From: Holophagae bacterium
Lineage (GTDB): Bacteria; Acidobacteriota; Thermoanaerobaculia; Thermoanaerobaculales; Sulfomarinibacteraceae
Reading direction: 5' to 3'
Assembly (NCBI GenBank): GCA_003105185.1
Contig: PQAJ01000245.1
Span: forward strand, 35,253-99,252
DNA: 64,000 nucleotides
This document shows positions 10,952 through 63,356 of the stretch, one piece after another. The position numbers and the translations under genes were made by a program. The notes under the pieces are model-generated. The model did not search any database. It was not told the DNA's origin and saw nothing but the letters and a program-made list of their open reading frames with translations. Position 1 is the first letter of the stretch. Every line of letters starts with the position of its first letter.

Positions 10952-11257
10952 ATGGTCATCAAGGAAACGCGGCCTTCCGTCGTCCGGACTACCGTTTCCC
11001 TCCCGGCGGACCTCCTGGCGAGGGTTGACGCATTGGTTGCGGTCGGCGGAGCTTCGTCGCGTACTGCGTTCATCATCGAGGCGCTGAGCGCGGACCTGGC
11101 ACGGCGAAAGGAGGAGGAGATCGACCGGACGTTCTACGAACTCGCCAACGATCCTGACCTTGCCGCCGAAGAGCGGGAACTCCATGCAGCCTTTACCGGT
11201 GCCGACCGGGAGAGCTGGTCGGCGATCAACGAAACTGACGGCGGCTGGGACGGGTGA
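10952..11257 (+). CDS. mazE: ribbon-helix-helix (CopG/MazE-like) antitoxin
   Basis: 101 aa. The N-terminal RTTVSLPADLLARVDALV..SRTAFIIEAL is an RHH signature. The stop overlaps the toxin start (GTGA). Confidence 0.8.
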   Translation: MVIKETRPSVVRTTVSLPADLLARVDALVAVGGASSRTAFIIEALSADLARRKEEEIDRTFYELANDPDLAAEERELHAAFTGADRESWSAINETDGGWDG

Positions 11258-11589
11258 ACCGGGGGGATGTGTACCTCGCCCGGCTCGACCCGGTAGAAGG
11301 CTCAGAACAGGCAGGCACGCGGCCCGTTGTCATCGTGTCCCGCGACAGCCTGAACAACACCCGGACACACGTAATTGCCGTGCCCCTCACGCGTACCCGG
11401 GGCTCGCGGCTCCTCCCGAGCCAGGTCGTGATCCCGGAGGGCGACGGTGGATTGCCGTCTGAATCGGTCGCGCGCACAGAACATGTCCGCGTGCTATCGA
11501 AAAAGCGCCTGCTACGCAGGTGGGGCGTCCTGTCGGCCGCTTCGCTGCGCTCCGTGGAAGCGGCCCTGAGAATCACGCTCCAGCTGTAG
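11254..11589 (+). CDS. mazF: MazF/PemK-family type II toxin endoribonuclease
   Basis: 111 aa: RGDVYLARLDPVEGSEQAGTRPVVIVS..AVPLT.. is the canonical MazF/PemK N-terminus. The GTG start overlaps the antitoxin stop. Confidence 0.9.
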   Translation: MNRGDVYLARLDPVEGSEQAGTRPVVIVSRDSLNNTRTHVIAVPLTRTRGSRLLPSQVVIPEGDGGLPSESVARTEHVRVLSKKRLLRRWGVLSAASLRSVEAALRITLQL

Positions 11590-11677: not shown

Positions 11678-12238
11678 ATGGCGTATCCCCTCTACACCGT
11701 GGGCCACTCTAACCACACCGCAGACGACCTCCTGGACCTGCTGCGGCGCAACGGCATTAGCGTGGTAGTGGATGTGCGTTCGTCGCCGTTCTCCCGCTAT
11801 TGTCCTCAGTTCAACCGTGAGCAGCTGGCCCGGCATTGCGCAGGCAAGCTGCGGTACGTGTGGATGGGGGATTCTCTCGGGGGGCGGCCGGCGGACCCCG
11901 CTTTTTACGACGAGGCTGGCCATGTGCTCTACGCGCCCCTCTCGCGCACAGAGTCGTTTCTCTCGGGGATAGGCGCATTGGAGCGAAATGCGGAGCGCTA
12001 TTCCATTGCGATACTGTGCTCCGAGGCCGACCCGATTGCCTGCCACCGGTCCCTTCTCATCACCCGGGTTCTGCGAGACCGAGGTATGCCGGATGACCGC
12101 ATACGGCATATTCTGGCAAACGGGACGGTTCGCAACGATTCGGAACTACCCGTTCAGGTTCCCATGCTGGAGGATGCGTGGAGATCGCCACTATCGGTTT
12201 TACACGAACCAGCGCTGAATCCTTCTTCGGGCGCATAG
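11678..12238 (+). CDS. DUF488 family protein (copy 1)
   Basis: YTVGHSNHT..VVDVRSSPFSR..ILCSEADPIACHRSLL are DUF488 hallmarks. Confidence 0.85.
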   Translation: MAYPLYTVGHSNHTADDLLDLLRRNGISVVVDVRSSPFSRYCPQFNREQLARHCAGKLRYVWMGDSLGGRPADPAFYDEAGHVLYAPLSRTESFLSGIGALERNAERYSIAILCSEADPIACHRSLLITRVLRDRGMPDDRIRHILANGTVRNDSELPVQVPMLEDAWRSPLSVLHEPALNPSSGA

Positions 12239-12615
12239 CCGAGTCCGGTGTCGCCGAAGTGTGGGATGTCCGGCTGAAAAAGTCATCGCAGCTTGCCGGA
12301 TTTGCGAAGCAGGGGGACCTGAAGTATTTCCTGGAAAGCCTTTGCGGGGTGAGCTATGTCGAGGTGCCCGAACTCGCGCCAGAGGCGGGCCTGCTTAAGG
12401 CGTACCGGGCCAAAAGCATCTGCTGGGATGACTACCAGGACGCCTATCTCAACTTGATCCGGACACGCCGCGTGGAACAGGTCCTGAATGCGCCGCTGAA
12501 CGGGAGCGGCATCGCCCTGCTTTGTAGCGAAGACACGCCGGGGCAGTGCCACCGGAGACTCGCGGCGGAGTACCTCCAACAACACTGGAAAGGCGTCGTG
12601 GTTCGCCACCTTTGA
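12178..12615 (+). CDS. DUF488 family protein (copy 2, divergent paralog)
   Basis: The GTG at 12178 is preceded by GGAGGA. MEIATIGFTRTSAESFF..VWDVRL..LLCSEDTPGQCHRRL. It overlaps the copy 1 tail by 61 nt in another frame. Confidence 0.85.
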   Translation: MEIATIGFTRTSAESFFGRIAESGVAEVWDVRLKKSSQLAGFAKQGDLKYFLESLCGVSYVEVPELAPEAGLLKAYRAKSICWDDYQDAYLNLIRTRRVEQVLNAPLNGSGIALLCSEDTPGQCHRRLAAEYLQQHWKGVVVRHL

Positions 12616-20601: not shown

Positions 20602-21650
20602 GGTGGCGCCTCGCCGTCCTCGGCGCTCCAGAGGGTCGGCTGGACCTCGGACTTGCGCGGGGGCTCCATCCCCAGGTGGCGATAGGCGGCGGCAGTGGCG
20701 ACCCGCCCCCGCGGCGTGCGGTTGAGGAAGCCGCACTGCAGGAGGAACGGCTCGTAGACATCCATGATGGTGTCGGACTCCTCGGAGATGGCGGCGGCGA
20801 TCGTCTCAAGGCCGACGGGCCCGCCGTCGAACTTCTCGATGATGCACCGGAGGACGGAGCGGTCGGCGTCATCCAGGCCCAGGTCGTCGACATCGAGCAT
20901 GGCGAGGGCCGCGCGGGCGGCCTCGAGGGTGACGCTCCCGCTGTTGCGCACCTCCGCATAGTCGCGGACGCGGCGGAGCAGGCGGTTGGCGATCCGGGGC
21001 GTGCCTCGCGAGCGCCGGGCGATCTCGAAGGCGGCGTCATCGGGCACACTGACACCCATGAGGCTGGCCGAACGGCGCACGATCACCGTGAGCGTCTCGG
21101 GGTCGTAGAAGTCGAGGCGGAAGACGGACCCGAAGCGGTCCCGCAGGGGCGCGCTGACCATCGCGTAGCGCGTGGTGGCGCCGATGAGGGTGAAGCTGGG
21201 CATCGCAAGGCGCACCGAACGGGCGCCCGGACCCTTGCCGATGACGAGGTCTAGGGCGAAATCCTCCATCGCCGGGTAGAGGATCTCTTCGACCGTGCGC
21301 GAAAGCCGGTGGATCTCGTCGATGAAGAGAAGGTCGTGTTCCTTGAGGTTCGTGAGGATCGCCGCGAGGTCGCCCGGGCGTTCGATGGCGGGGCCGGAGG
21401 TGGTGCGTATGGAGACGCCCATCTCGTTCGCGACGATGTTGGCCAGGGTGGTCTTGCCCAGTCCAGGCGGGCCATAGAGCAGCAGGTGGTCGAGCGCTTC
21501 TCCGCGCTGTTTCGCGGCCTCGACGGCGATGGCGAGGTTGGCCTTGGTGCGGTCCTGGCCGGGGAACTCCCCGAGCGTCTTCGGGCGAAGCGACCGCTCG
21601 GCCTCGTCGTCGACGATGAGGGTGGCAGCCACGAGGCGCTCTTCGGTCAC
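20598..21650 (-). CDS. ruvB: Holliday junction branch-migration helicase RuvB
   Basis: [12 protein letters not shown].., Walker [10 protein letters not shown], and DEIHRL. The preferred start is the GTG at 21650, because the ORF-track start (21668) lies inside the apparent -10/LexA-like region. Confidence 0.95.
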
Positions 21651-21676
21651 AGGCCGAGTATAGCGCACAGATGTTC
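21651..21676 (-). promoter_or_regulatory. ruvB promoter: GAACATCTGTGC (one mismatch to GAAC-N4-GTTC), then TATACT -10, then 6 nt to GTG (leaderless candidate)
   Basis: Minus strand reads cTAGAACATCTGTGCGCTATACTCGGCCT-GTG. Confidence 0.35.
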
Positions 21677-21692
21677 TAGCGCGATGGCAAGA

Positions 21693-34477: not shown

Positions 34478-35698
34478 TCACCGCGTGGTGAGCGCGCGTT
34501 CCAGGGCGCTGAACGCGTCGATGACCTCAGTCGCCTCGAACGCCCGGTTGCGCCGCCCGACGCGGACAGGCCGAAGGATGCCTGCCGCGGTCAGCCGCGC
34601 CACCGCCTGGTTCGCCGCCTGGTAGGTCCGGCCTGTCAGCCCGGCGGCCCCTGCCGCTGTCACGATCGGCGCTCCTGGCAGCATGGCCAGCAGGAGGTCC
34701 GCCGTCGATCCCCGCCGGACCGCTCCAAGCCGGGAACGCCACTCGGCCTCCAGCTCGCGTGCCCGCTCTTCGTAGTCGAGCCCATCCCTCACTGCCCGCG
34801 TGCAGGCTCTCGCGAACACCGCGATCCACTGGTTCAAACCCTGGTGGGCCGCCTGGGACGAGGGGTCGCCGTCGTACCGGGTCGCCATCAGTCCGGCCAC
34901 ATACTGCTCCGCCTGTGCCGCGAGGACGAGAGAGATAGGTGGCAGCACCCGTGACGCCAGGCCGCGCCTGCGCAGGACGACCTGGATGAGCGCCCGGCCG
35001 ATGCGGCCGTTGCCATCGGCGAACGGGTGGATCGTCTCGAACTGGGCGTGCGCGAGGGCCGCCTGCACCACAGGAGAAAGCGCGTCTCCGCTGCAGAACC
35101 GGCAGAGGTCCTCCAGCAACGACTCCACCACATCTGGCGGCGGCGGGACAAACGCAGCGGAGCACGGGTTGTAGCCGCTGCCGCCGATCCAGTTCTGCTC
35201 ATCCCGAATGCGGCCCGCTGTCTCCGAAAGGCGCGTCCCCGAAAGCAACAGGCGGTGCATTTCGAGCAAGTGAGCGGTCGTTATCTCCGGAGCCCCGGAA
35301 ACCGACTGGATCGCCCACTGGACTGCGCTGATGTTCCCGAGGACCTCCTCGGCAGTGACATCGCGGGCCTCGTCGCCGAGTGTGTGCGCTGCCTCGGCCC
35401 GGAGCAGGCGGCGAGCGCCAACTTCCAGCCCCTCAATTCGCGACGATGCGACCGCTTCGGCCCGAAGCAGGAGCCGCGCAAGTGCCTCAGAGTCCACCAG
35501 CGCAGAGGCCGAGCGGTCCAGGTGGCCGATGGCGGCTTCCGCATCGGCGACATCGGCGGCCACATCGCCATCGAGCCTGATCCCGCGCCCCACGAGCGCG
35601 TCGGGCAGATACGCCCGGTACTCGCAGGCGTGGCGATCGCGCCGGGAGGATCCGGCTCCCGGGCTCGCGGGCCATGTCAGGCGCAGGTACTTCGCCAT
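34478..35698 (-). CDS. fic: Fic/DOC-family protein (AMPylase-type) with an N-terminal inhibitory motif and a C-terminal wHTH
   Basis: Fic motif HPFADGNGRIGRAL, N-terminal SSRIEG ((S/T)xxxE(G/N) inhibitory helix), and a C-terminal winged-helix-like ..YQAANQAVARLTAAGIL... Confidence 0.9.
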   Translation of the reverse strand: MAKYLRLTWPASPGAGSSRRDRHACEYRAYLPDALVGRGIRLDGDVAADVADAEAAIGHLDRSASALVDSEALARLLLRAEAVASSRIEGLEVGARRLLRAEAAHTLGDEARDVTAEEVLGNISAVQWAIQSVSGAPEITTAHLLEMHRLLLSGTRLSETAGRIRDEQNWIGGSGYNPCSAAFVPPPPDVVESLLEDLCRFCSGDALSPVVQAALAHAQFETIHPFADGNGRIGRALIQVVLRRRGLASRVLPPISLVLAAQAEQYVAGLMATRYDGDPSSQAAHQGLNQWIAVFARACTRAVRDGLDYEERARELEAEWRSRLGAVRRGSTADLLLAMLPGAPIVTAAGAAGLTGRTYQAANQAVARLTAAGILRPVRVGRRNRAFEATEVIDAFSALERALTTR

Positions 35699-54047: not shown

Positions 54048-55649
54048 CTAGCCTGCTCCCTCCGGCACATTGCCGCCCAGTTCCTTGATCGTGGCGAGCA
54101 CATCCTCGGGGATGGCTTCGCCCTTCTCGATCGCTTCCTTCGCCTTGCGCTCGGCGCGCATCCGGCGGGCGCGCACCTTCTCGTACGAGTTCGGGTCGCC
54201 CTTCGGGCCGATGCCGATGCCCGGCGGCGGCACCCAGCCATCCGCGTCCGGGGCAATGCCACCCTCCGCGGGCGCCGCGGCTCCACCACCACCGCCGCCC
54301 AGCGTCGCCCAGATGCTGCCCCCTGGCGCGAGGTCGCTGCCAAGGTCATAGAGCGTCTTCGCGATGTCGTCCGGGATCGCCTCCCCCGCGGCCGTGAGCT
54401 CGTTGAACTTGCGCTCCGCGCGCATCCGCCGGGCCCGCACCTTCTCCGCCGAGTTCGGGTCGCCCTTCGGGCCGTCGCCGACTCCCGGCGGGAAGCGCAT
54501 GCTGCCATCGGGGTTCGTCCCCGTCAGCGGGGCCGCCGGCGCGCCGCCACCTCCCGGGCCCGCGAGCTTCGCCCAGATCGTCCCGCCCGGTGCAAGGTCG
54601 CTCCCGAGGTCGTAGAGGGTCTGCGCCACATCCTCGGGGATCGGCTCTCCGGCAGCGGTGAGTTCGTTGAACTTGCGCTCGGCGCGCATCCGCCGGGCTC
54701 GCACCTTCTCCGGCGAATTCGGGTCGCCCTTGGGGCCGTCGCCAACCCCGGGCGGGAAGCGCATGCTGCCATCGGGGTTCGTCCCCGTGAGCACCACGCC
54801 GGTGCCGCCGGCAGCGGCGCCGCCGCCTGCGGCCGCGGCCTCGCCCGGCTTCATGTTCCGGTACTTCTCAATGGCATCCAGGATCTCCTGAGGGACGGCC
54901 TCGCCGCGGTCCTGGAATTCCTTCGCCTGGCGTTCGGCGCGCATGCGCTTCGCCCGGATCTTCGATTCGGAGAGGATTTCGACCTCTTCGCCCCCGGCGG
55001 CCGCGGCTGGGCCCGCTTTCGCGGCAACCTGCTTCACCTCGGGTTCGCGCTCCTGGATCGCCGCGGGGAGCCCCTGCGCGATGCGGTCGATCTGAGCCTG
55101 CCGGTTTTCCGGGAAGGCGCCAACGAAGGTCGGCTCGGGCGGTTCTTCGCCTTTTACCTGCCGCTCGAGTATCTCGATGTTGTCCTGCGGGCGGAACGGG
55201 TGGATCAGTTCCCCGGTGCGCGAAACCTTTAGCAGCTCGTCGATGTTCATGTGCAGGTCGCGCCGGTCGTACACCGAGTGCTCGTGACCCGTCCAGTTGT
55301 TGTCCATCACGATCGCTTCGAAGGGGCAGACCTCGACGCAGATATTGCAGCGCATGCAGCGCGCGTAGTCGATCCAGAACTTCTCGACGATCTTCCGCCG
55401 GTTGCTCGTGCCCTCGGCGTACTTCGGGTTGTCGATCATGGTCGCGGTCATGCAATCGACCGGGCAGTTGCGGACGCAAACGTTGCAGCCGGTGCAGAAC
55501 GGCTCGTCGTGGTCGAAGTCCCACGTCAGCACCGGGAAGCTGCGCTGGCGCACCGGCAGAACGTGCTTCACGTCCGGGTATTTCACCGTCACCGGCTTGC
55601 GGGTGAAGGTCGAAAAGGTGACGCCGAGACCTTTCAGGATGCCTTTCAT
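54048..55649 (-). CDS. nuoI: NADH-quinone oxidoreductase subunit I (2x[4Fe-4S]) with a roughly 370-aa repeat-containing C-terminal extension
   Basis: The ATG at 55649 overlaps the nuoH stop (ATGA). Residues 1-165 form a canonical NuoI (CTGCNVCVRNCP and CMRCNICVEVCP). Residues 166-533 are an extension with four K(V/I)RA(R/K)RMRAER motifs. The upstream 129 codons of the 662-aa ORF-track call overlap nuoH and are rejected. Confidence 0.9.
   Translation of the reverse strand: MKGILKGLGVTFSTFTRKPVTVKYPDVKHVLPVRQRSFPVLTWDFDHDEPFCTGCNVCVRNCPVDCMTATMIDNPKYAEGTSNRRKIVEKFWIDYARCMRCNICVEVCPFEAIVMDNNWTGHEHSVYDRRDLHMNIDELLKVSRTGELIHPFRPQDNIEILERQVKGEEPPEPTFVGAFPENRQAQIDRIAQGLPAAIQEREPEVKQVAAKAGPAAAAGGEEVEILSESKIRAKRMRAERQAKEFQDRGEAVPQEILDAIEKYRNMKPGEAAAAGGGAAAGGTGVVLTGTNPDGSMRFPPGVGDGPKGDPNSPEKVRARRMRAERKFNELTAAGEPIPEDVAQTLYDLGSDLAPGGTIWAKLAGPGGGGAPAAPLTGTNPDGSMRFPPGVGDGPKGDPNSAEKVRARRMRAERKFNELTAAGEAIPDDIAKTLYDLGSDLAPGGSIWATLGGGGGGAAAPAEGGIAPDADGWVPPPGIGIGPKGDPNSYEKVRARRMRAERKAKEAIEKGEAIPEDVLATIKELGGNVPEGAG
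54051..54974 (-). repeat. in-frame tandem coding repeats inside nuoI
   Basis: Unit A is 54525-54791 (residues 287-375) and unit B is 54258-54524 (residues 376-464). Each is 89 aa, and they are about 90% identical over the first 75 residues by hand alignment. There is a degenerate unit C at 54051-54257 and a partial unit at 54855-54974. Confidence 0.85.
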
Positions 55650-56803
55650 TGGGGAGTCGACCCCAGGGTGCGGTACGTGCCCACCAGGCCCTTGCTGGCC
55701 TTGGCGGTCGAGTGCCGGATGATGAGCGCGATAAGGACCACCGCGCCGATCCCGCTCGTGAGCGCCAGCAGCTCCTGCGGCCAGCCGTACAGCAGGATGA
55801 AGCCGTTCACGATGAGCTGCACAAACGAAAGTTCGAGCAGCACCTTCCAGCTGAAGTTCATGAGCTGGTCGATGCGGAGCCGGGGCACTGTGACGCGCAT
55901 CCACATGATGGCGATGATGAACGCCAGGCTCTTCACGAGCGTAGTCCCGAGCTGGACCGTCCAGTGCGCGTCGACGCCGAACGGCCAGGCCCACCCGCCC
56001 AGGAACACCACCGACCCGAAGACGCTGAAGCCCCACATCGAGGCGTATTCAGTGAGCTGGAACATGCTCCACCGGATGCCCGAGTACTCCACGAAGTAGC
56101 CGCCCACAATTTCCGACTCCGCGACCGGGATGTCGAACGGCGCGCGGTGGAGCTCCGACAGCATCGCCGTGAAGAAGATGAGGAACGCAAGCGGCTGTAG
56201 GACGATGTACGGCCGGTCCTCCTGCAGCGCAGCGATCACGTTCAGGTTGAGCGTGCCGACCCCACCGCCCATGTCGGCCCCCGTGATCATGACCACGCAG
56301 AGCAGGCTGATGACCAGCGGGATCTCGTAACTGATCATCTGGGCCGCGGCGCGCACGCCGCCAAGAAGCGCGTACTTATTCCCCGACCCGAGCCCCGCCA
56401 TCATGATGCCCACGATGTTCAGGCCAAGGATGGCGAACACGTAGAACAACCCGAGCGCCAGGTTCCGGACGCCCCAGTCCTTCGCGAACGGCAGCACCAT
56501 GAGCGTCATCAGCACCGGGATGAACGTCGCGTAGGGCGCCAGTTCGAACACCCAGCGGTCCGCGTTCGTCGGCCGGATGTCTTCCTTGGTCACCAGCTTC
56601 AGCGCGTCGGCGAAGCCCTGGAGGATGCCGCCCGGGCCGGTCTTGCGGGGGCCAAGGCGTTGCTGAAAGCGCGCGACCACCCAGCGCTCACCAACGGTGA
56701 GGTACACCACCACGATGGTCATCACCATGACCACGATGACCACCCGGATGATCGCGTCGACCCAGGACGGGAGGCCGAACAGCGGGTCGGCAAACAACAT
56801 CAC
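55646..56803 (-). CDS. nuoH: NADH-quinone oxidoreductase subunit H
   Basis: 385-aa polytopic protein with ..ERWVVARFQQRLGPRKTGPGGILQGFADALKL... Its start overlaps the nuoD stop. Confidence 0.93.
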   Translation of the reverse strand: MMLFADPLFGLPSWVDAIIRVVIVVMVMTIVVVYLTVGERWVVARFQQRLGPRKTGPGGILQGFADALKLVTKEDIRPTNADRWVFELAPYATFIPVLMTLMVLPFAKDWGVRNLALGLFYVFAILGLNIVGIMMAGLGSGNKYALLGGVRAAAQMISYEIPLVISLLCVVMITGADMGGGVGTLNLNVIAALQEDRPYIVLQPLAFLIFFTAMLSELHRAPFDIPVAESEIVGGYFVEYSGIRWSMFQLTEYASMWGFSVFGSVVFLGGWAWPFGVDAHWTVQLGTTLVKSLAFIIAIMWMRVTVPRLRIDQLMNFSWKVLLELSFVQLIVNGFILLYGWPQELLALTSGIGAVVLIALIIRHSTAKASKGLVGTYRTLGSTPQ

Positions 56804-59076: not shown

Positions 59077-59438
59077 GGCTTCCACTCCAGCACGCCGCGC
59101 TTCCAGGCGTAGACCAGCCCGAGGCTGAGGATCAGGATGAAGGCGATCATGTGATAGAAGACGAAATCGGGCAGCGCCAGGTAGGTCATCGCCCAGGGAA
59201 AGATAAAGACAGTCTCCACGTCGAAAATCAAAAAGAGGATCGCGATCAGGTAGTAGCGGATGTGGACCTGCGACCAGTTGCGCCCGATCGGGAGCATGCC
59301 GCACTCGTAGCTGACGCCTTTGCCCCGCTCCCGCGCGAAGGGAGCCAGCAGGCGGGCGCCGATGAGCGCCGTGAATACCAGGACGAACCCGGCGATCGCG
59401 GCGATCATGACGGCGGACCAGGAGTCGTAGAAGCTCAT
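59073..59438 (-). CDS. nuoA: NADH-quinone oxidoreductase subunit A
   Basis: The ATG at 59438 gives a 121-aa, 3-TM protein with ..[21 protein letters not shown]... Confidence 0.9.
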
Positions 59439-59605
59439 TGCTGGGGCCTCCGGGCGGTGCGGGCAACGAAGAAGCGGAGCCCCGGCACGCGGGGTGACGA
59501 GAAGGCTCTGCAAGTCATTTTCGGGTGCACTCCCGGGAGATGACAGGCGCCTTCTGGGGGCGTCCTGTGGGTTGTGATGAAGCACACAAACGATAACTGC
59601 GAGAT

Positions 59606-59639
59606 GGGGGGAGGGCAAGGGCAGGGAAAGGGGGGCGGG
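59606..59639 (+). other. G-run cluster (G6-A-G3-CAA-G3-CA-G3-AAA-G6-C-G3), a potential G-quadruplex/i-motif in the nuoA-tcmP divergent region
   Basis: gagatGGGGGGaGGGcaaGGGcaGGGaaaGGGGGGcGGGa. Confidence 0.4.
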
Positions 59640-59671
59640 AGCGGCCAGAGGGATTGACACATTTGTTCTGA

Positions 59672-60592
59672 ATGAGCCATATTCGTGCCGCTGCACAACA
59701 AGGAGAGCGGCCATGGCAAAGACGGGGCACAGACTACACCGGGTTAAACCGCCAATTAGCGTGGGCGGATGACGGTCGCCCGGTGCGATCCGTCGGAGGT
59801 TGGACCCGGGACAAGTTGGCGCTCCTGGCGTACTACCTTCCGGCATTCGCGAAGCTCTGCACCGACAAGGTCGGCGGCTGGTACTACCTCGATGGCTTCG
59901 CGGCGAATGGAGTCAACCGCACACAAGAATTCCCTTTAGCGAAGGGGACAGCGCTGATCGGCCTCTCGCAATCACCGCCGCCCACCAAGGCCCTGCTGAT
60001 CGAGCGGAACCACGATGATGTCGAGACGCTCCGCGCTCGAAGCATCCCATTTCTTACAGAGACGCTGGTCTTGGAGGGAGACGCAAACGAACTGATTCCG
60101 AAGCAACTGGCTTTCTTCGACCTCCCCCACCTTCCGGGCTTCTGCGTTCTGGACCCTGAAGGATTGGAACTCGACTGGACGACAATTCAGGCGTGTGCAG
60201 AGCACCGGCGCGGTCGCACGCCGTACGAACTCCTCATCTATTTCTCAACGCCGGGAGCCGCACGCACGGGCGCCGTCCAAGCTGCCGGGTATGTAGAGAA
60301 GACCGAAGCGCGATTGCAGCGGCTCTTTGGTAACGAATCATGGCGTGAGGTGGCGCAGCAGCAAGGCCGCCGGGTACTGGCGCCCGGGGAGGCCAGCAAC
60401 TTGTATCTCTCGATGTATGAATCGCAGCTCAGAAACCTCGGCTACACCACCGTCTTGAGTCGTCCATCGCTTCGTCAGGATGGAGTCCTCGTGTATCACA
60501 TGGTCTTCGCGTCAGCTAACGAGGCGGGCGCAAGCATAATGGCCAGCGCATTCAAGCGTGCGTACGGAAGCCAGGTTCCGCTTCAATTCTAG
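59672..60592 (+). CDS. tcmP: three-Cys-motif partner protein TcmP-like
   Basis: The pattern ..GGWTRDKLALLAYYLPAFAKL..WYYLDGFAANG..LIERN..VLEGDANE..FCVLDPEG.. matches my recollection of the TcmP family, which pairs with DUF5131/Gp37-Gp68 proteins. The start (ATG at 59672) is uncertain. Confidence 0.7.
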   Translation: MSHIRAAAQQGERPWQRRGTDYTGLNRQLAWADDGRPVRSVGGWTRDKLALLAYYLPAFAKLCTDKVGGWYYLDGFAANGVNRTQEFPLAKGTALIGLSQSPPPTKALLIERNHDDVETLRARSIPFLTETLVLEGDANELIPKQLAFFDLPHLPGFCVLDPEGLELDWTTIQACAEHRRGRTPYELLIYFSTPGAARTGAVQAAGYVEKTEARLQRLFGNESWREVAQQQGRRVLAPGEASNLYLSMYESQLRNLGYTTVLSRPSLRQDGVLVYHMVFASANEAGASIMASAFKRAYGSQVPLQF

Positions 60593-61318
60593 CTAAGCCG
60601 GCATGGCGTCCCACGTCCGCCCGTGTAACAACCGCCCCGCCCGGCTCTTGCCAACCCGCCGTCCGTTGCAGTCGTGCGCGCCCCACTGCTTGAAGAAGAA
60701 GGCAACACCTGCATCCTCGCACTGCCGCCGGATCGACTCCGCCCACTCTTCCTTCATCGGTCGCGCCTTTGGACCTGACTCTCCGCCGACGATCACCCAG
60801 CGGATCCCACTCAGATCGAGCCGGAGTGGTCCCAGAAGCGGTTCGCAACTCAGGAACCGCACCGTGGCGGGAGTCTCCCGGAGCGCATCAACGCGGTGCA
60901 CCCAGCGTTGATTCTCGACGGACGTGCCCATCCAGATGTTCTCGGTCCATGTGAGTTCCCGCGTGAGCGCCGCCGCACGCTCGGGGCGCTTGGTGAGCAC
61001 CTGGAAGCTATGCCACCACGCCCGATTCATCGTCTCGAACACGGACGCGATGTACTCGTCGGGTACCTCTTCGTGGAACAGGTCGCTCATCGAGTTCACA
61101 AAGATGAGCCGCCCGCGCTTCCACTGCAGCGGCAGTTCGAGTCGCTCAGGCCGGAGTTGCAGGTCGAAGCCGTTCTCATAGGGGTGGCCCGGCACCCCCC
61201 GGAAGCGTTCCGCGAACGTCTCCGCGTAGCAATGGGCACAACCCGGGCTGACCTTCGTGCAACCCGTGACCGGATTCCAGGTCGCCTGCGTCCACTCGAT
61301 CGCCGAACCGTCGCTCAT
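60593..61318 (-). CDS. phage Gp37/Gp68-family protein (DUF5131) with a three-Cys motif
   Basis: MSDGSAIEWTQATWNPVTGCTKVSPGCAHCYA.. is the canonical DUF5131 N-terminus (C-x6-C-x2-C). RBS GGGAGG. The stop abuts the tcmP stop (TAG|CTA, zero spacer). Confidence 0.88.
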   Translation of the reverse strand: MSDGSAIEWTQATWNPVTGCTKVSPGCAHCYAETFAERFRGVPGHPYENGFDLQLRPERLELPLQWKRGRLIFVNSMSDLFHEEVPDEYIASVFETMNRAWWHSFQVLTKRPERAAALTRELTWTENIWMGTSVENQRWVHRVDALRETPATVRFLSCEPLLGPLRLDLSGIRWVIVGGESGPKARPMKEEWAESIRRQCEDAGVAFFFKQWGAHDCNGRRVGKSRAGRLLHGRTWDAMPA

Positions 61319-61410
61319 GGAGGGCCTCCCATGATGTTCACATTCGCGCCGCCATTATGATCGATCTCTCGACTACCGCTTTCTCTCACACAATGTTCTC
61401 TGGCGGATAA

Positions 61411-61422
61411 GAACATATGTTC
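61411..61422. promoter_or_regulatory. perfect GAAC-N4-GTTC palindrome (SOS-box-like)
   Basis: ataaGAACATATGTTCcacg, 93 nt upstream of the DUF5131 ATG (61318). Confidence 0.4.
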
Positions 61423-61561
61423 CACGCGGGGTCGACACCCCGTGTCGCTTCCCACTGTGCCACCTCCCCCTTGTAGCTCCCACCACCACCCCAAACGCTG
61501 CCCCCATGCGACCAGCCCTCGGCGGCCCGGCAATAGCCGTGCAATCGCCATGTGCACAAGC

Positions 61562-61618
61562 GAACGCACGCCAACGCACGTGCGCCGGCCATGCGTTCCC
61601 GTGCGTTGGAATGCGTCC
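61562..61618. repeat. imperfect long inverted repeat built from five ACGCA/TGCGT units
   Basis: GAACGCACGCCAACGCACG-N19-CGTGCGTTGGAATGCGTCC. The inner 10-nt arms CCAACGCACG/CGTGCGTTGG are perfect. Confidence 0.4.
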
Positions 61619-61744
61619 CCCGTGTGGGCTGGTGCGTCCTGGCGCTGCTCCGAGCCCGCCCTGGTTACGCTCCCTCGCTTAGCCACCCATCACAGTGTGA
61701 CGTCGTTCGCGGTTCCCCTTCGCTGCCACCCCGGACACTGGAAC

Positions 61745-61823
61745 GGCGGCGGCACGGCCCGCGATCCCCGCTTCCCGGATGCTCCTGTCGTCCCGGCTTC
61801 GCGCCGGGAGCCGTGCCGCCGCC
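61745..61823 (+). other. nested stem structure (14-bp outer stem enclosing a 7-bp hairpin) in the putative 5' leader of the hydrolase-cyclase gene
   Basis: GGCGGCGGCACGGC (61745-61758) is perfectly complementary to GCCGTGCCGCCGCC (61810-61823). The inner hairpin is TCCCGGC-ttcgc-GCCGGGA (61791-61809). Confidence 0.35.
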
Positions 61824-61919
61824 CGTCATCGGAACAATTTCCATCCGGCCGTCGTTAGGCCCGCGGAACAGGCCGGTGGCCAGGGTTGTTTACACGGTCC
61901 CGCAAAATTGGGGGCAGCG

Positions 61920-63356
61920 ATGGAGGCGACAATAAGTTACGATTCCGCCGCGAGGTTCTCTCCGCCTCAGCCTTCCACCACGGGCCGTCACATGCTGCCC
62001 CGCATCCAGTACGCCCAGGCGCCCGACCGGGTCTCCATCGCATTTTGGGCGGTCGGCGATGGCGTGCCCTTGCTGGTGATGTACCCACCCGGCTTCAGCA
62101 ACATCCAGTACGAATGGGAGATGCCCGAGTCCTCCCGCGTCTACGAGGCCGCCCGGGGCTGGGCAACCGTGATCCGCTTCGACCACCGCAACAACGGCCT
62201 CTCCGAACGGGGCGTCGCGGATGTCTCCCTCGAGGGGTTCTCGAAGGACCTCGAAGGCGTCCTGAACCGGCTCGACCTGGGCCGCGCCCACATCGTCGCT
62301 GGCACTGATTGCGGGAAGGTCGCCATCCAGTTCGCCGCCCACAACCCCGGGCGCGTTGCCTCGCTCACGCTCTTCCGCACCAACCCTGGCCCCGGCAGTT
62401 CGGCCGCCGCGCCCGAGTGGACCAGCCTGCGGCCCGTGCTCGAAAAGGACTGGCACCTGTTCACCGACCTCCTGGCTACGGCCATCAACGGCCTGGACGA
62501 CGGCGAACAGACCGCCCGGGTCGCCCGCTACATCCGCGAGAGCGTCAATGCCGAGGAATTCGTGGCTGCCAACGATTCGCTCGCCCAGGCCGATGTTCGT
62601 CCCCTGCTGCCTTCCATTCGCTGCCCGGTCCTCGTCCTCCACCGGATGGATTCGCCCTTCTTCGCCATCGAGCGCGCCCGGGGCCTGGTCGGGGCCATCC
62701 CCGATGCGCGCCTCTCGGTGCTGCCGGGGAAGTCGCCGTTCGCCTGGGATGACCCGGTCGTCGAGGCCGTCCGGTCGTTCGTCCTCGAAGTCGCCTCGGC
62801 CGAGAACCGGGCGCGCTTCGGCGTGCGCAGCGGCACCTCGTTCCGGACCATCCTCTTCACCGACATCGAAAAACACAACGAACTCATCCGGCTGCTGGGC
62901 GACCACCTCGGCCGCCAGGTCTTGCGCGAACACGAGCGCATCACCCGTGAGGCCCTGCGCGCACACGGCGGCAGCGAAGTGAAGTCCATGGGCGATGGGT
63001 TCCTCGCGTCGTTCAACTCGACCCAGAAAGCGCTCGAGTGCGCGATCGCGCTGCAACGCTCGCTGGCGGCCGAGAACCTCGGCGCCGGCCTCTCCGGCCC
63101 GCTGAGCGAGGGCCTCCGCGTCCGCGTCGGCATCAACGCCGGCGAACCGATCGCCGAGGACGCCGACCTCTTCGGTACCGCCGTCATCGCCGCCGCCCGG
63201 ATCGCTTCCCTCGCGGCCGGCGGCGAAATCCTCGTCGCCAACGTGGTCCGCGAGCTGGTCGCCGGGAAGGGCTTCCTCTTCAGCGACCGGGGCGAACAGG
63301 CCCTCCGCGGGCTCGAAGACCCGGTCCGCCTCTGGGACCTGCGCTGGCAGGAGTGA
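61920..63356 (+). CDS. alpha/beta-hydrolase domain fused to a class III adenylate/guanylate cyclase domain
   Basis: The N-terminal half is ..VSIAFWAVGDGVPLLVM..HIVAGTDCGKVAIQFAA... The C-terminal half is ..FRTILFTDIEKHNEL..KSMGDGFLASF..VRVGINAGEP..DLFGTAVIAAARI.. (CYC motifs). The start is 61920 or 61992. Confidence 0.85.
   Translation: MEATISYDSAARFSPPQPSTTGRHMLPRIQYAQAPDRVSIAFWAVGDGVPLLVMYPPGFSNIQYEWEMPESSRVYEAARGWATVIRFDHRNNGLSERGVADVSLEGFSKDLEGVLNRLDLGRAHIVAGTDCGKVAIQFAAHNPGRVASLTLFRTNPGPGSSAAAPEWTSLRPVLEKDWHLFTDLLATAINGLDDGEQTARVARYIRESVNAEEFVAANDSLAQADVRPLLPSIRCPVLVLHRMDSPFFAIERARGLVGAIPDARLSVLPGKSPFAWDDPVVEAVRSFVLEVASAENRARFGVRSGTSFRTILFTDIEKHNELIRLLGDHLGRQVLREHERITREALRAHGGSEVKSMGDGFLASFNSTQKALECAIALQRSLAAENLGAGLSGPLSEGLRVRVGINAGEPIAEDADLFGTAVIAAARIASLAAGGEILVANVVRELVAGKGFLFSDRGEQALRGLEDPVRLWDLRWQE

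Follow-up and report, generated by a model that had tools for sequence, protein, structure and literature searches.

In this study, we analysed a convergent gene pair in a 64-kb stretch of DNA from a Holophagae bacterium (positions 35,253 to 99,252 of contig PQAJ01000245.1; the whole stretch of 64,000 nt is here called the window), in which a gene for a TcmP-like protein and a gene for a protein of the DUF5131 (phage Gp37/Gp68) family meet tail to tail beside the nuo operon. We show here that both proteins belong to these families, that the pairing of the two genes is conserved, and that an operator of the LexA type, which overlaps the promoter, is conserved upstream of DUF5131. The structural model assigns TcmP to a methyltransferase fold, and in several archaeal loci its neighbour is not DUF5131 but a protein of the spore photoproduct lyase (SPL) family. 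The comparison of loci makes it likely that DUF5131 is under SOS control in this clade. As to the function of the pair, we favour, tentatively and with somewhat less than even confidence, a LexA-repressed radical S-adenosylmethionine (SAM) enzyme which, together with a methyltransferase-fold partner, might process lesions on damaged DNA in the manner of SPL. The following features of the locus are the ones on which the argument turns.

59672–60592, + strand: TcmP-like open reading frame (ORF), 306 aa as read in the window allele
60590–60595: 3′-to-3′ junction, where two TAG stops abut (TAG/CTA) and form the palindrome TAGCTA
60593–61318, − strand: DUF5131 (Gp37/Gp68) gene, 241 aa
61319–61406, − strand: putative 5′ leader of the DUF5131 mRNA, with two more GAACAT half-site-like repeats and the ribosome-binding site GGGAGG
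61407–61412, − strand: putative −10 hexamer TCTTAT, proposed by analogy with relatives, sharing two bases with the end of the operator arm nearest the promoter
61411–61422: LexA-type operator (Cheo box) GAACATATGTTC, a perfect box 93 nt upstream of the DUF5131 start codon (ATG 61318)

A preliminary description of this DNA, made from the sequence alone, had reported convergent ORFs of 306 and 241 aa with adjacent stops, and a perfect palindrome 93 nt upstream of the DUF5131 start, and all of these are present. Because the stop codons abut, there is no room for an intergenic terminator between the two genes.

The operator upstream of DUF5131

The looser pattern GAAC-N4-GTTC occurs four times in the window, compared with 0.9 expected, and no shuffle reached four. 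Its conservation was counted in 69 non-redundant species-level loci (individual loci carry L numbers below). In 43 of them, the 150 nt upstream of DUF5131 hold a box that departs from GAAC-N4-GTTC at no more than one position, whereas the background rate for random stretches of this length from these loci is 5.7% (binomial 5e-36, a p-value that ignores phylogenetic relatedness). Perfect boxes precede DUF5131 in 12 of the 69 loci against a background of 0.43%. Among the relatives the box reads GAAC-N4-GT(T/G)C, and its arms are kept while the spacers and distances differ between loci; in six near-identical contigs (L001–L006) the box GAACATGTGTTC occupies the same position as in the window, with a changed spacer and intact arms. 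The box is found in convergent loci and in co-directional ones, where it lies in the spacer between TcmP and DUF5131, and it accompanies both of the DUF5131 subfamilies described below.

In the relatives, the right arm of the box usually runs straight into TATAAT, TATACT or TACAAT and a −35-like hexamer stands before the left arm, as in L059 (TTTACA-atgca-GAACATTTGTGC-TATAAT) and likewise in L060, L062, L066, L084 and L085. The box fills the spacer between the −35 and −10 hexamers and therefore a bound repressor would block RNA polymerase. The corresponding putative −10 hexamer in the window, TCTTAT, matches at only four of six positions and was not called by the promoter scan. In the Tepidiformaceae genomes L017 (7593–8137), L018 and L023, a 165-aa Cys/His-rich ORF with HNH-like motifs is placed between the operator and promoter and DUF5131, with which it appears to share an operon; the L017 copy has no Pfam match.

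A position weight matrix built from the DUF5131 boxes was run over the window, and its three best sites all lie at gene starts. The top site (61410–61423) is the one at DUF5131 itself, and the other two are as follows.

21664–21677, − strand: ruvB operator GAACATCTGTGC, then GC-TATACT; matrix score 15.9; the gene product matches RuvB_N with 262 bits
11652–11665, + strand: third operator GAACAGAAGTTC, with a tandem pair of DUF488 genes beginning 12 nt further on

RuvB is encoded by a classic SOS gene, and its operator provides a control from within the genome, in which the motif is thus seen to mark DNA-repair genes. In the window its GTG start codon lies six bases after the TATACT −10 hexamer (21648–21677 region), and the gene is probably both SOS-controlled and leaderless; the start given to this ORF mechanically, 21668, lies within the operator and is probably wrong. 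The two DUF488 genes (11678–12238 and 12178–12615) have a low G+C content at third codon positions (GC3, 0.70 and 0.73), adjoin a RHH/MazF toxin–antitoxin pair (10952–11589) and may be another uncharacterised SOS gene unit in this genome. A strong matrix site in L060 (2515) was set aside as uninformative, since it precedes a membrane protein gene and gyrB.

The motif GAAC-N4-GTTC is said to have been shown by Fernandez de Henestrosa and colleagues in 2002 for Dehalococcoides, a member of the Chloroflexi. To our knowledge, neither TcmP nor DUF5131 has been described as belonging to the core of a published LexA regulon. In B. subtilis as well as in M. tuberculosis, the LexA motif is GAAC-N4-GTTC (PMC3323433). 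The induction of the pair by DNA damage, which the preliminary description had put forward, has thus gained comparative support from the conserved Cheo-type box in Chloroflexota, from the ruvB box and from the M. tuberculosis data given below.

The two proteins and their pairing

TcmP matches TIGR04474 with 107.2 bits against a cut-off of 53 and covers 261 of the 263 profile positions, and DUF5131 matches PF07505 with 352.9 bits against a threshold of 28.9 (positions 2–243 of 243), so that the family names first given to the two proteins by inspection hold. TcmP is also a PADLOC match (PDC-M41A, E 4.7e-17), while in a Pfam search it had no match to any family, including the methyltransferase families. 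The family is large: at 50% identity it falls into 4,055 clusters for E ≤ 1e-3 and into 1,704 for E ≤ 1e-10. The AlphaFold2 (AF2) model of TcmP is of good quality (predicted local distance difference test score, pLDDT, 89; predicted TM-score 0.87), and a Foldseek search with it returned 84 PDB chains at E ≤ 1e-3, the listed ones being nearly all methyltransferases; at the top are E. coli RlmJ and a DUF519 relative (E 1.7e-6, TM 0.5), followed by Trm1, COMT and CmoA. A degenerate Rossmann methyltransferase-like fold had been proposed by eye from the motif order YLDGFAANG, LIERN, GDANE and VLDPEG, and these motifs indeed map to β1–β4 of the Rossmann-type model, as motifs I (YLDGFAANG), II (LIE111), III (GDxN) and IV (D161-P-E-G). 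In a set of 68 TcmP sequences with 23–74% identity, motif I (D74-x-x-A-G78-x-G80) is highly conserved (D74 in 68/68, G78 in 64/68 and G80 in 67/68), position 111 is E or D in all 68, D/N137-x-N139 is also conserved, and the signature D161-P-E-G-L-E-L-x-W169 (DPEGLELxW) is nearly invariant. According to the model, TcmP has an RlmJ-like class I methyltransferase fold, and SAM binding is plausible because motif I and the acidic residue 111 are conserved over the 68 sequences. The catalytic motif IV of the form (D/N)PP(Y/F/W) is not found in TcmP, which reads DPEG and lacks the aromatic residue. Compared with PDB sequences, the proteins and profiles of TcmP and DUF5131 gave no significant relatives.

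DUF5131 matches the PADLOC models PDC-M41B (E 2.2e-109) and PDC-M30B as well as phrog_2045 (E 1.7e-103); to TIGR04471 (radical SAM mobile pair protein A) it scores 76 bits, which is below the cut-off. The C-x6-C-x2-C triad pointed out earlier is present as C20-x6-C27-x2-C30 in the peptide TGCTKVSPGCAHCYAE, and the three cysteines are invariant in 71 diverse homologues. The first and the last keep their places, and the middle one shifts by subfamily (CX6CX2C in 55 sequences, CX3CX10C in 16). Canonical CX3CX2C spacing is seen in the DUF5131 member of L094 and CX3CX3C in that of L098. The AF2 model of DUF5131 has a pLDDT of 86, with low confidence in the Cys loop, as expected for a model without the cluster. 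Its Foldseek matches in the PDB are weak and include radical SAM enzymes, and the best TM-score is with spore photoproduct lyase (4fhg; TM 0.53, probability 0.98, E 0.015). RadicalSAM.org places DUF5131 in Megacluster-5-2, beside SPL in 5-3 (PMC9477430). DUF5131 probably belongs with the radical SAM enzymes that carry a [4Fe-4S] cluster, as a relative of the SPL clade. The only characterised member of the DUF5131/SPL radical-SAM clade that we know of repairs DNA by direct reversal.

One genome per species was scanned with the TcmP alignment, and the resulting 80 loci come from Chloroflexota (Tepidiformaceae, Dehalococcoidia and Anaerolineae), some Deinococcota, a Zixibacteria genome and archaea. 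In 70 of the 72 loci in which this could be tested, DUF5131 adjoins TcmP; in eight of the ten loci without this adjacency, the contig ends no more than 160 nt from TcmP. The arrangement is convergent in 39 loci, TcmP precedes DUF5131 co-directionally in 30, and the order is reversed in one. Tight or overlapping 3′ ends recur in relatives, in a Deinococcus plasmid, a Nocardioides plasmid, Gordonia phage Fairfaxidum and archaeal contigs. This adjacency answers the earlier question of whether the pairing is conserved in related genomes, and the pair is, as had been said of it, a recognised duo to which no function has been assigned: the name of TIGR04474 makes it the partner of a three-Cys protein, and PADLOC holds the pair only as the candidate PDC-M41. 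A literature search on DUF5131, TcmP, PDC-M41, Gp37/Gp68 and 'radical SAM mobile pair' returned only annotation-level mentions and no paper on function.

Two archaeal loci, L075 and L081, have room for a partner and no DUF5131. The neighbour of TcmP in both is a protein of some 345 residues that carries the motif CYF[DN]CAWCYLQGT (CX3CX2C) and matches the Pfam SPL family with 58–64 bits against a cut-off of 27. The neighbours of TcmP in the following loci complete the picture.

L092/L093 (Bathyarchaeia): SPL-family neighbour, SPL then TcmP, co-directional
L096: SPL-family neighbour, convergent, 4-nt overlap
L094: DUF5131 neighbour, convergent
L098: divergent DUF5131 neighbour, co-directional, with a weak Radical_SAM match and an hhalign probability of 95% to DUF5131

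TcmP therefore stands next to an SPL-family protein in at least four distinct archaeal contexts (L075, L081, L092/L093 and L096). As judged from these loci, the partner of TcmP is interchangeable within one radical-SAM clade, the link between the alternative partners being contextual and structural.

The start of TcmP and the surroundings of the pair

Three features were mapped at the 5′ end of TcmP.

59654–59683, + strand: promoter-like site TTGACA-18-CATATT for TcmP, from a consensus scan (10 of 12 matches; a consensus match only)
59657–59668, just before ATG 59672: putative degenerate LexA-type box remnant ACAC-ATTT-GTTC, named for its placement and resemblance
59700–59719, + strand: native TcmP start region, with the Shine–Dalgarno sequence AAGGAG (59700–59705), the conserved ATG (59713–59715) and an A-run (59717–59719)

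Homologues of TcmP are about 292 aa long and begin with M-A-x-R-G-T-D-Y. Alignment with L001–L007 shows that one extra A in the run 59717–59719 (indel mapped at 59718) frameshifts TcmP at codon 3; the conserved ATG 59713, behind its perfect AAGGAG, is out of frame in the window, and reading from it gives 19 aa followed by a stop. The allele with the extra A (ATGGCAAAGACGG) is present in the window and in four of the six near-identical contigs (L001, L002, L004 and L005), and the allele without it (ATGGCAAGACGG or ATGGCAACACGAGG) in L006, L003 and the next species, L007. Four independent sequencing runs show the +A allele, and it is therefore considered real. In L003 the TcmP gene contains two more indels (an insertion at 60039 and a deletion at 60258), and L006 has the canonical allele. 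All six contigs encode one and the same DUF5131 protein (100% identity), the nucleotide differences in its gene being synonymous throughout. While the 306-aa ORF of the preliminary description exists, its length is an artefact of the 1-nt insertion: it survives solely through an upstream in-frame ATG at 59672, which has no Shine–Dalgarno sequence, and its residues 1–17 are disordered in the AF2 model. This ATG falls inside the one promoter-like site found for TcmP, between its −35 (TTGACA, 59654) and −10 (CATATT, to 59683) hexamers; the TTGACA is also kept in L007. It follows that TcmP in this genome may be N-terminally remodelled or, more likely, poorly expressed or unexpressed, and with its native start frameshifted the module here may rely on DUF5131 alone or run with little TcmP. 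A second box, GGTAC-N4-GTTCG, stands directly in front of the TcmP start codon in 13 genomes of the Tepidiformaceae type, and the box at 59657–59668 would be a remnant of it.

The pair is flanked by nuoA on one side and by a hydrolase-cyclase gene on the other. The preliminary description had seen it as wedged next to the nuo genes, in a block visibly less G+C-rich than these. Neither part of this view was sustained. In 14 related genomes (L007 and L012–L024), nuoA-nuoB lie divergently upstream of TcmP, which rules out a recent horizontal insertion beside nuo; NuoA is 72–93% identical between the syntenic genomes, TcmP down to 38–52% and DUF5131 64–80%, and the comparison indicates that nuoA-TcmP-DUF5131 is an old order of genes that this family has passed on vertically. 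TcmP has a G+C content of 0.600 and DUF5131 one of 0.649, with 0.639 and 0.654 in the intergenic regions on either side, values that overlap those of nuoA/B/D/H (0.612–0.647); the block is below the window mean (0.669) and the gene downstream of it (0.689), not below the nuo genes. Only GC3 is atypical (0.68 for TcmP and 0.81 for DUF5131 vs 0.90–0.92 for nuo).

Outside the nuoA-syntenic clade the genomic location of the pair varies. A census of 138 flanking ORFs in 55 other loci found 159 Pfam families, mostly of housekeeping genes, and only 2 of the 138 ORFs have restriction-modification methylase domains (N6_Mtase/Eco57I). A conserved third gene was looked for in the same census and, none being recurrent, the unit consists of two genes. 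In L025 a 621-aa ABC_tran/AAA_21 (AbiEii-like) ATPase is encoded directly upstream of TcmP, and L028 has a copy 84% identical in the same place; these families are matched by 4 of the 138 flanking ORFs, and the ATPase may be an occasional accessory or defence-type neighbour.

Some further observations concern the DNA on either side of the pair. The intergenic region upstream of the operator (61423–61919) is unusually long, about 500 nt, and contains 17-nt inverted repeats (61564–61580 and 61600–61616, 88% complementary); an Rfam search of 59380–62000 gave no match. A 16-nt indel at 61626 distinguishes the window from L001–L005. In the nuo operon, the NuoI-like ferredoxin subunit (54048–56036, − strand) has a C-terminal extension of about 400 aa, which is unusual for NuoI and holds three repeats of about 75 aa (TGTNPDGSMRFPPGVGDGPKGDPNS-EKVRARRMRAERK...).

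Possible functions of the pair and comparison with known systems

According to the reading that we favour, LexA would hold DUF5131 off through the operator overlapping its promoter, and DNA damage would inactivate LexA, upon which DUF5131 would be transcribed. TcmP would be expressed from its own promoter, which in some lineages also has a LexA box. TcmP might then recognise and flip out an abnormal base or lesion, or handle SAM, and the radical-SAM subunit would carry out oxygen-independent radical chemistry, for example the direct reversal or cleavage of a DNA lesion as in SPL. Data from another phylum are in line with such a role. The largest of the gene clusters that mitomycin C induces in M. 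tuberculosis is made up of Rv2734, Rv2735c, recX and recA (PMC5057432), and Rv2735c is co-transcribed with recA-recX (PMC3062782). BCG_2748c, the neighbour of recX (BCG_2749c), holds a TcmP domain (PMC7387457), and a frameshift in Rv2735c, 363_364insGT, was found in 16 of the 27 isolates belonging to the high-prevalence group of lineage 4 (PMC9846648). We favour a housekeeping damage-response role over a toxin–immunity role because frameshifts in TcmP are tolerated with DUF5131 intact, because the synteny with nuo is long-term and because the neighbours are mostly housekeeping genes.

Several observations weigh against this reading. Neither recA nor lexA was found in the window or in 86 loci when these were probed with the E. 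coli proteins, and for want of such genes for comparison we infer, rather than observe, that LexA binds the operator; the same holds for DNA as the substrate, for a TcmP–DUF5131 complex and for the repair chemistry. In the window the operator stands 93 nt away from the start codon and is surrounded by weak −10 and −35 hexamers. No box is present in the 150 nt tested upstream of DUF5131 in 26 of the 69 loci, among them L017, L018 and L023, in which a box lies about 500 nt upstream, and a search for radiation/desiccation response motif (RDRM) or Cheo-type operators at the Deinococcota, Nocardioides plasmid and Gordonia phage copies gave nothing convincing. With regard to the enzyme, the window DUF5131 has no match to the Radical_SAM hidden Markov model (HMM) PF04055 at E ≤ 0.1 and none to the SPL HMM (PF20903), its Foldseek likeness to radical SAM enzymes is weak (E 0.015), and hhalign comparison of DUF5131 with the TcmP-linked SPL-like proteins gave probabilities of 1–17%, which are not significant. 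Lastly, the pair figures in PADLOC as a candidate for defence, and certain copies are located by McrBC or DNA methylases or within a prophage lysogeny module.

The last point belongs to the best-supported alternative, an anti-phage defence module (PDC-M41), in which TcmP would be a sensor or self-protecting partner and DUF5131 an effector released on an SOS signal from phage infection or prophage induction, damaging or modifying nucleic acid and thereby aborting infection. We consider this unlikely. In its favour, both proteins match PDC-M41A/B and DUF5131 also matches PDC-M30B, the convergent layout resembles that of many restriction-modification systems, and GC3 is atypical. Plasmid copies in Deinococcus and Nocardioides lie beside McrBC, N6 DNA methylases and an integrase, and the S. 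meliloti TcmP SMa2243 is listed beside the Hna defence gene SMa2245, the two being co-upregulated in a nolR+ strain. In phage Fairfaxidum (L089, 32933–35225), gp42 (DUF5131) and gp43 are convergent with an 11-nt overlap; gp43 is a 398-aa 'methyltransferase' with a TcmP-like C-terminal region, encoded directly downstream of the immunity repressor gene gp44 on the same strand, and the pair sits between integrase and immunity repressor, in the lysogeny module. This is the place, downstream of the repressor, in which lysogenically expressed defence genes typically sit. However, the position beside nuoA-nuoB has been kept in 14 genomes despite a TcmP identity of only 38–52%, unlike the fast turnover of defence islands, and the neighbours in the census are mostly housekeeping genes, with restriction-modification methylase domains in the two ORFs mentioned. 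The window locus itself does not lie in a defence-island or mobile context, which is seen only in some plasmid and phage copies. TcmP is nearly absent from phage genomes: DUF5131 occurs in 180 of 50,697 phage records, mostly of actinophages, and TcmP in only four, as weak matches. Both in this genome and among M. tuberculosis isolates, TcmP occurs in frameshifted form beside an intact DUF5131, which would not be expected of an essential immunity factor, and the literature search found no published defence phenotype.

Less probable still is a role in nucleic-acid modification, in which the two proteins together would install or remodel a modified base in DNA, rRNA or tRNA; they might do so under stress, for instance, or to set an epigenetic mark of phage or host. 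The closest structures to TcmP are RNA methyltransferases (RlmJ and Trm1) and its SAM motifs are intact, and radical SAM and methyltransferase-fold enzymes are common together in RNA modification pathways. In actinophages, DUF5131 can lie in what is a typical DNA-modification neighbourhood, as in Bakery and prophiGD13-2, where it adjoins DNA methylases, a PAPS-reductase-like gene and an HNH gene. On the other hand, LexA control and membership of a recA operon would be unusual for housekeeping RNA modification, motif IV of TcmP lacks the aromatic residue used by amino-methyltransferases, TcmP is dispensable in natural populations, and its alternative partners are SPL-family lyases and not known modification enzymes. 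A view of the pair as the decaying remains of a mobile element, no longer functional in this genome, and of the palindrome as a relic or a chance match would agree with the frameshifted TcmP of the window and four of six near-identical contigs, the two more indels of a further contig, the atypical GC3 and the association of DUF5131 with phages (180 records), but is highly improbable given that the DUF5131 protein is identical in six contigs and across the syntenic family as conserved as NuoA, that the operator has kept its arms through changes of the spacer, that the TcmP ORF is intact apart from a single insertion, and that the exact 12-mer is expected, by our estimate, about 4e-4 times in 64 kb at the base composition of the window. 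The preliminary description had named modification, repair and defence side by side, and of these we favour repair only tentatively.

Among these functions, the SPL-like lesion processing that we favour leads to a wider proposal, namely that TcmP with a Megacluster-5 radical SAM protein (DUF5131 or SPL-family) might constitute an unrecognised two-component DNA repair system of bacteria, archaea and phages. We regard this as speculative and on balance doubtful; if true, the system would be oxygen- and light-independent and, in bacteria, SOS-inducible, would reverse or excise a class of DNA lesions, and would extend SPL-type repair well beyond spore formers. Compared with the literature searched, the conserved operator, the pairing of TcmP with SPL-family proteins and the RlmJ-like fold with a DPEG pocket are new. 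DUF5131 and TcmP are widespread, DUF5131 being found in bacteria, archaea and 180 phage genomes, and the operator, the exchange of partner for SPL and the copy in the M. tuberculosis recA operon provide a specific hypothesis for a conserved hypothetical pair: damage-induced, oxygen-independent radical repair or processing of DNA, which can be tested with standard tools. This would be relevant to the DNA-damage response of M. tuberculosis, to DNA lesions in anaerobes and subsurface Chloroflexota, and to the way in which candidate-defence calls by PADLOC are read.

The known systems with which the pair can be compared each share a part of it. RlmJ (DUF519), the 23S rRNA m6A2030 methyltransferase, has the same Rossmann fold; motif I of TcmP resembles its YLDxxAGxG, and as in class I methyltransferases generally an acidic residue ends β2 and motif IV starts with DP. 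TcmP is only 11–13% identical to RlmJ and has no HMM match to it, and where RlmJ-type enzymes have DPPY it has DPEG, without the aromatic residue that stacks on the target adenine. Unlike RlmJ, TcmP is always accompanied by a radical-SAM-type neighbour gene. Spore photoproduct lyase (SplB; PF20903, TIGR04070) is a radical SAM enzyme that directly reverses a thymine dimer; SPL and DUF5131 share a RadicalSAM.org megacluster, SPL gives the best TM-score for the DUF5131 model, and a DNA-damage-response role is plausible for both. DUF5131 is no member of the SPL family: its triad in the window is CX6CX2C and that of SPL CX3CX2C, and it is about 100 residues shorter. Bacillus SPL functions without a partner protein. 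With the Gram-positive LexA/SOS regulon (Cheo box) the locus shares the operator sequence, the overlap with the promoter and, in this genome, the occurrence of the operator at ruvB, while the Chloroflexota boxes also use the arm variants GTGC and GTAC. The M. tuberculosis genes Rv2734, the putative DUF5131 counterpart, and Rv2735c are likewise a convergent pair that includes a TcmP-domain gene, is induced by mitomycin C and lies beside recX-recA, and frameshift alleles of Rv2735c segregate in natural isolates as the +A allele of TcmP does here with DUF5131 intact; the phylum and the position are different, and control by damage comes through read-through of the recA operon and not from an operator on DUF5131. 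The window locus is, finally, a member of the TcmP/three-Cys pair (TIGR04474 + PF07505; PDC-M41), having the HMM matches, the adjacency, the Cys triad and DPEGLELxW, and to what was known of this pair the present clade adds an operator of the LexA type, synteny with nuoA and a frameshifted TcmP allele.

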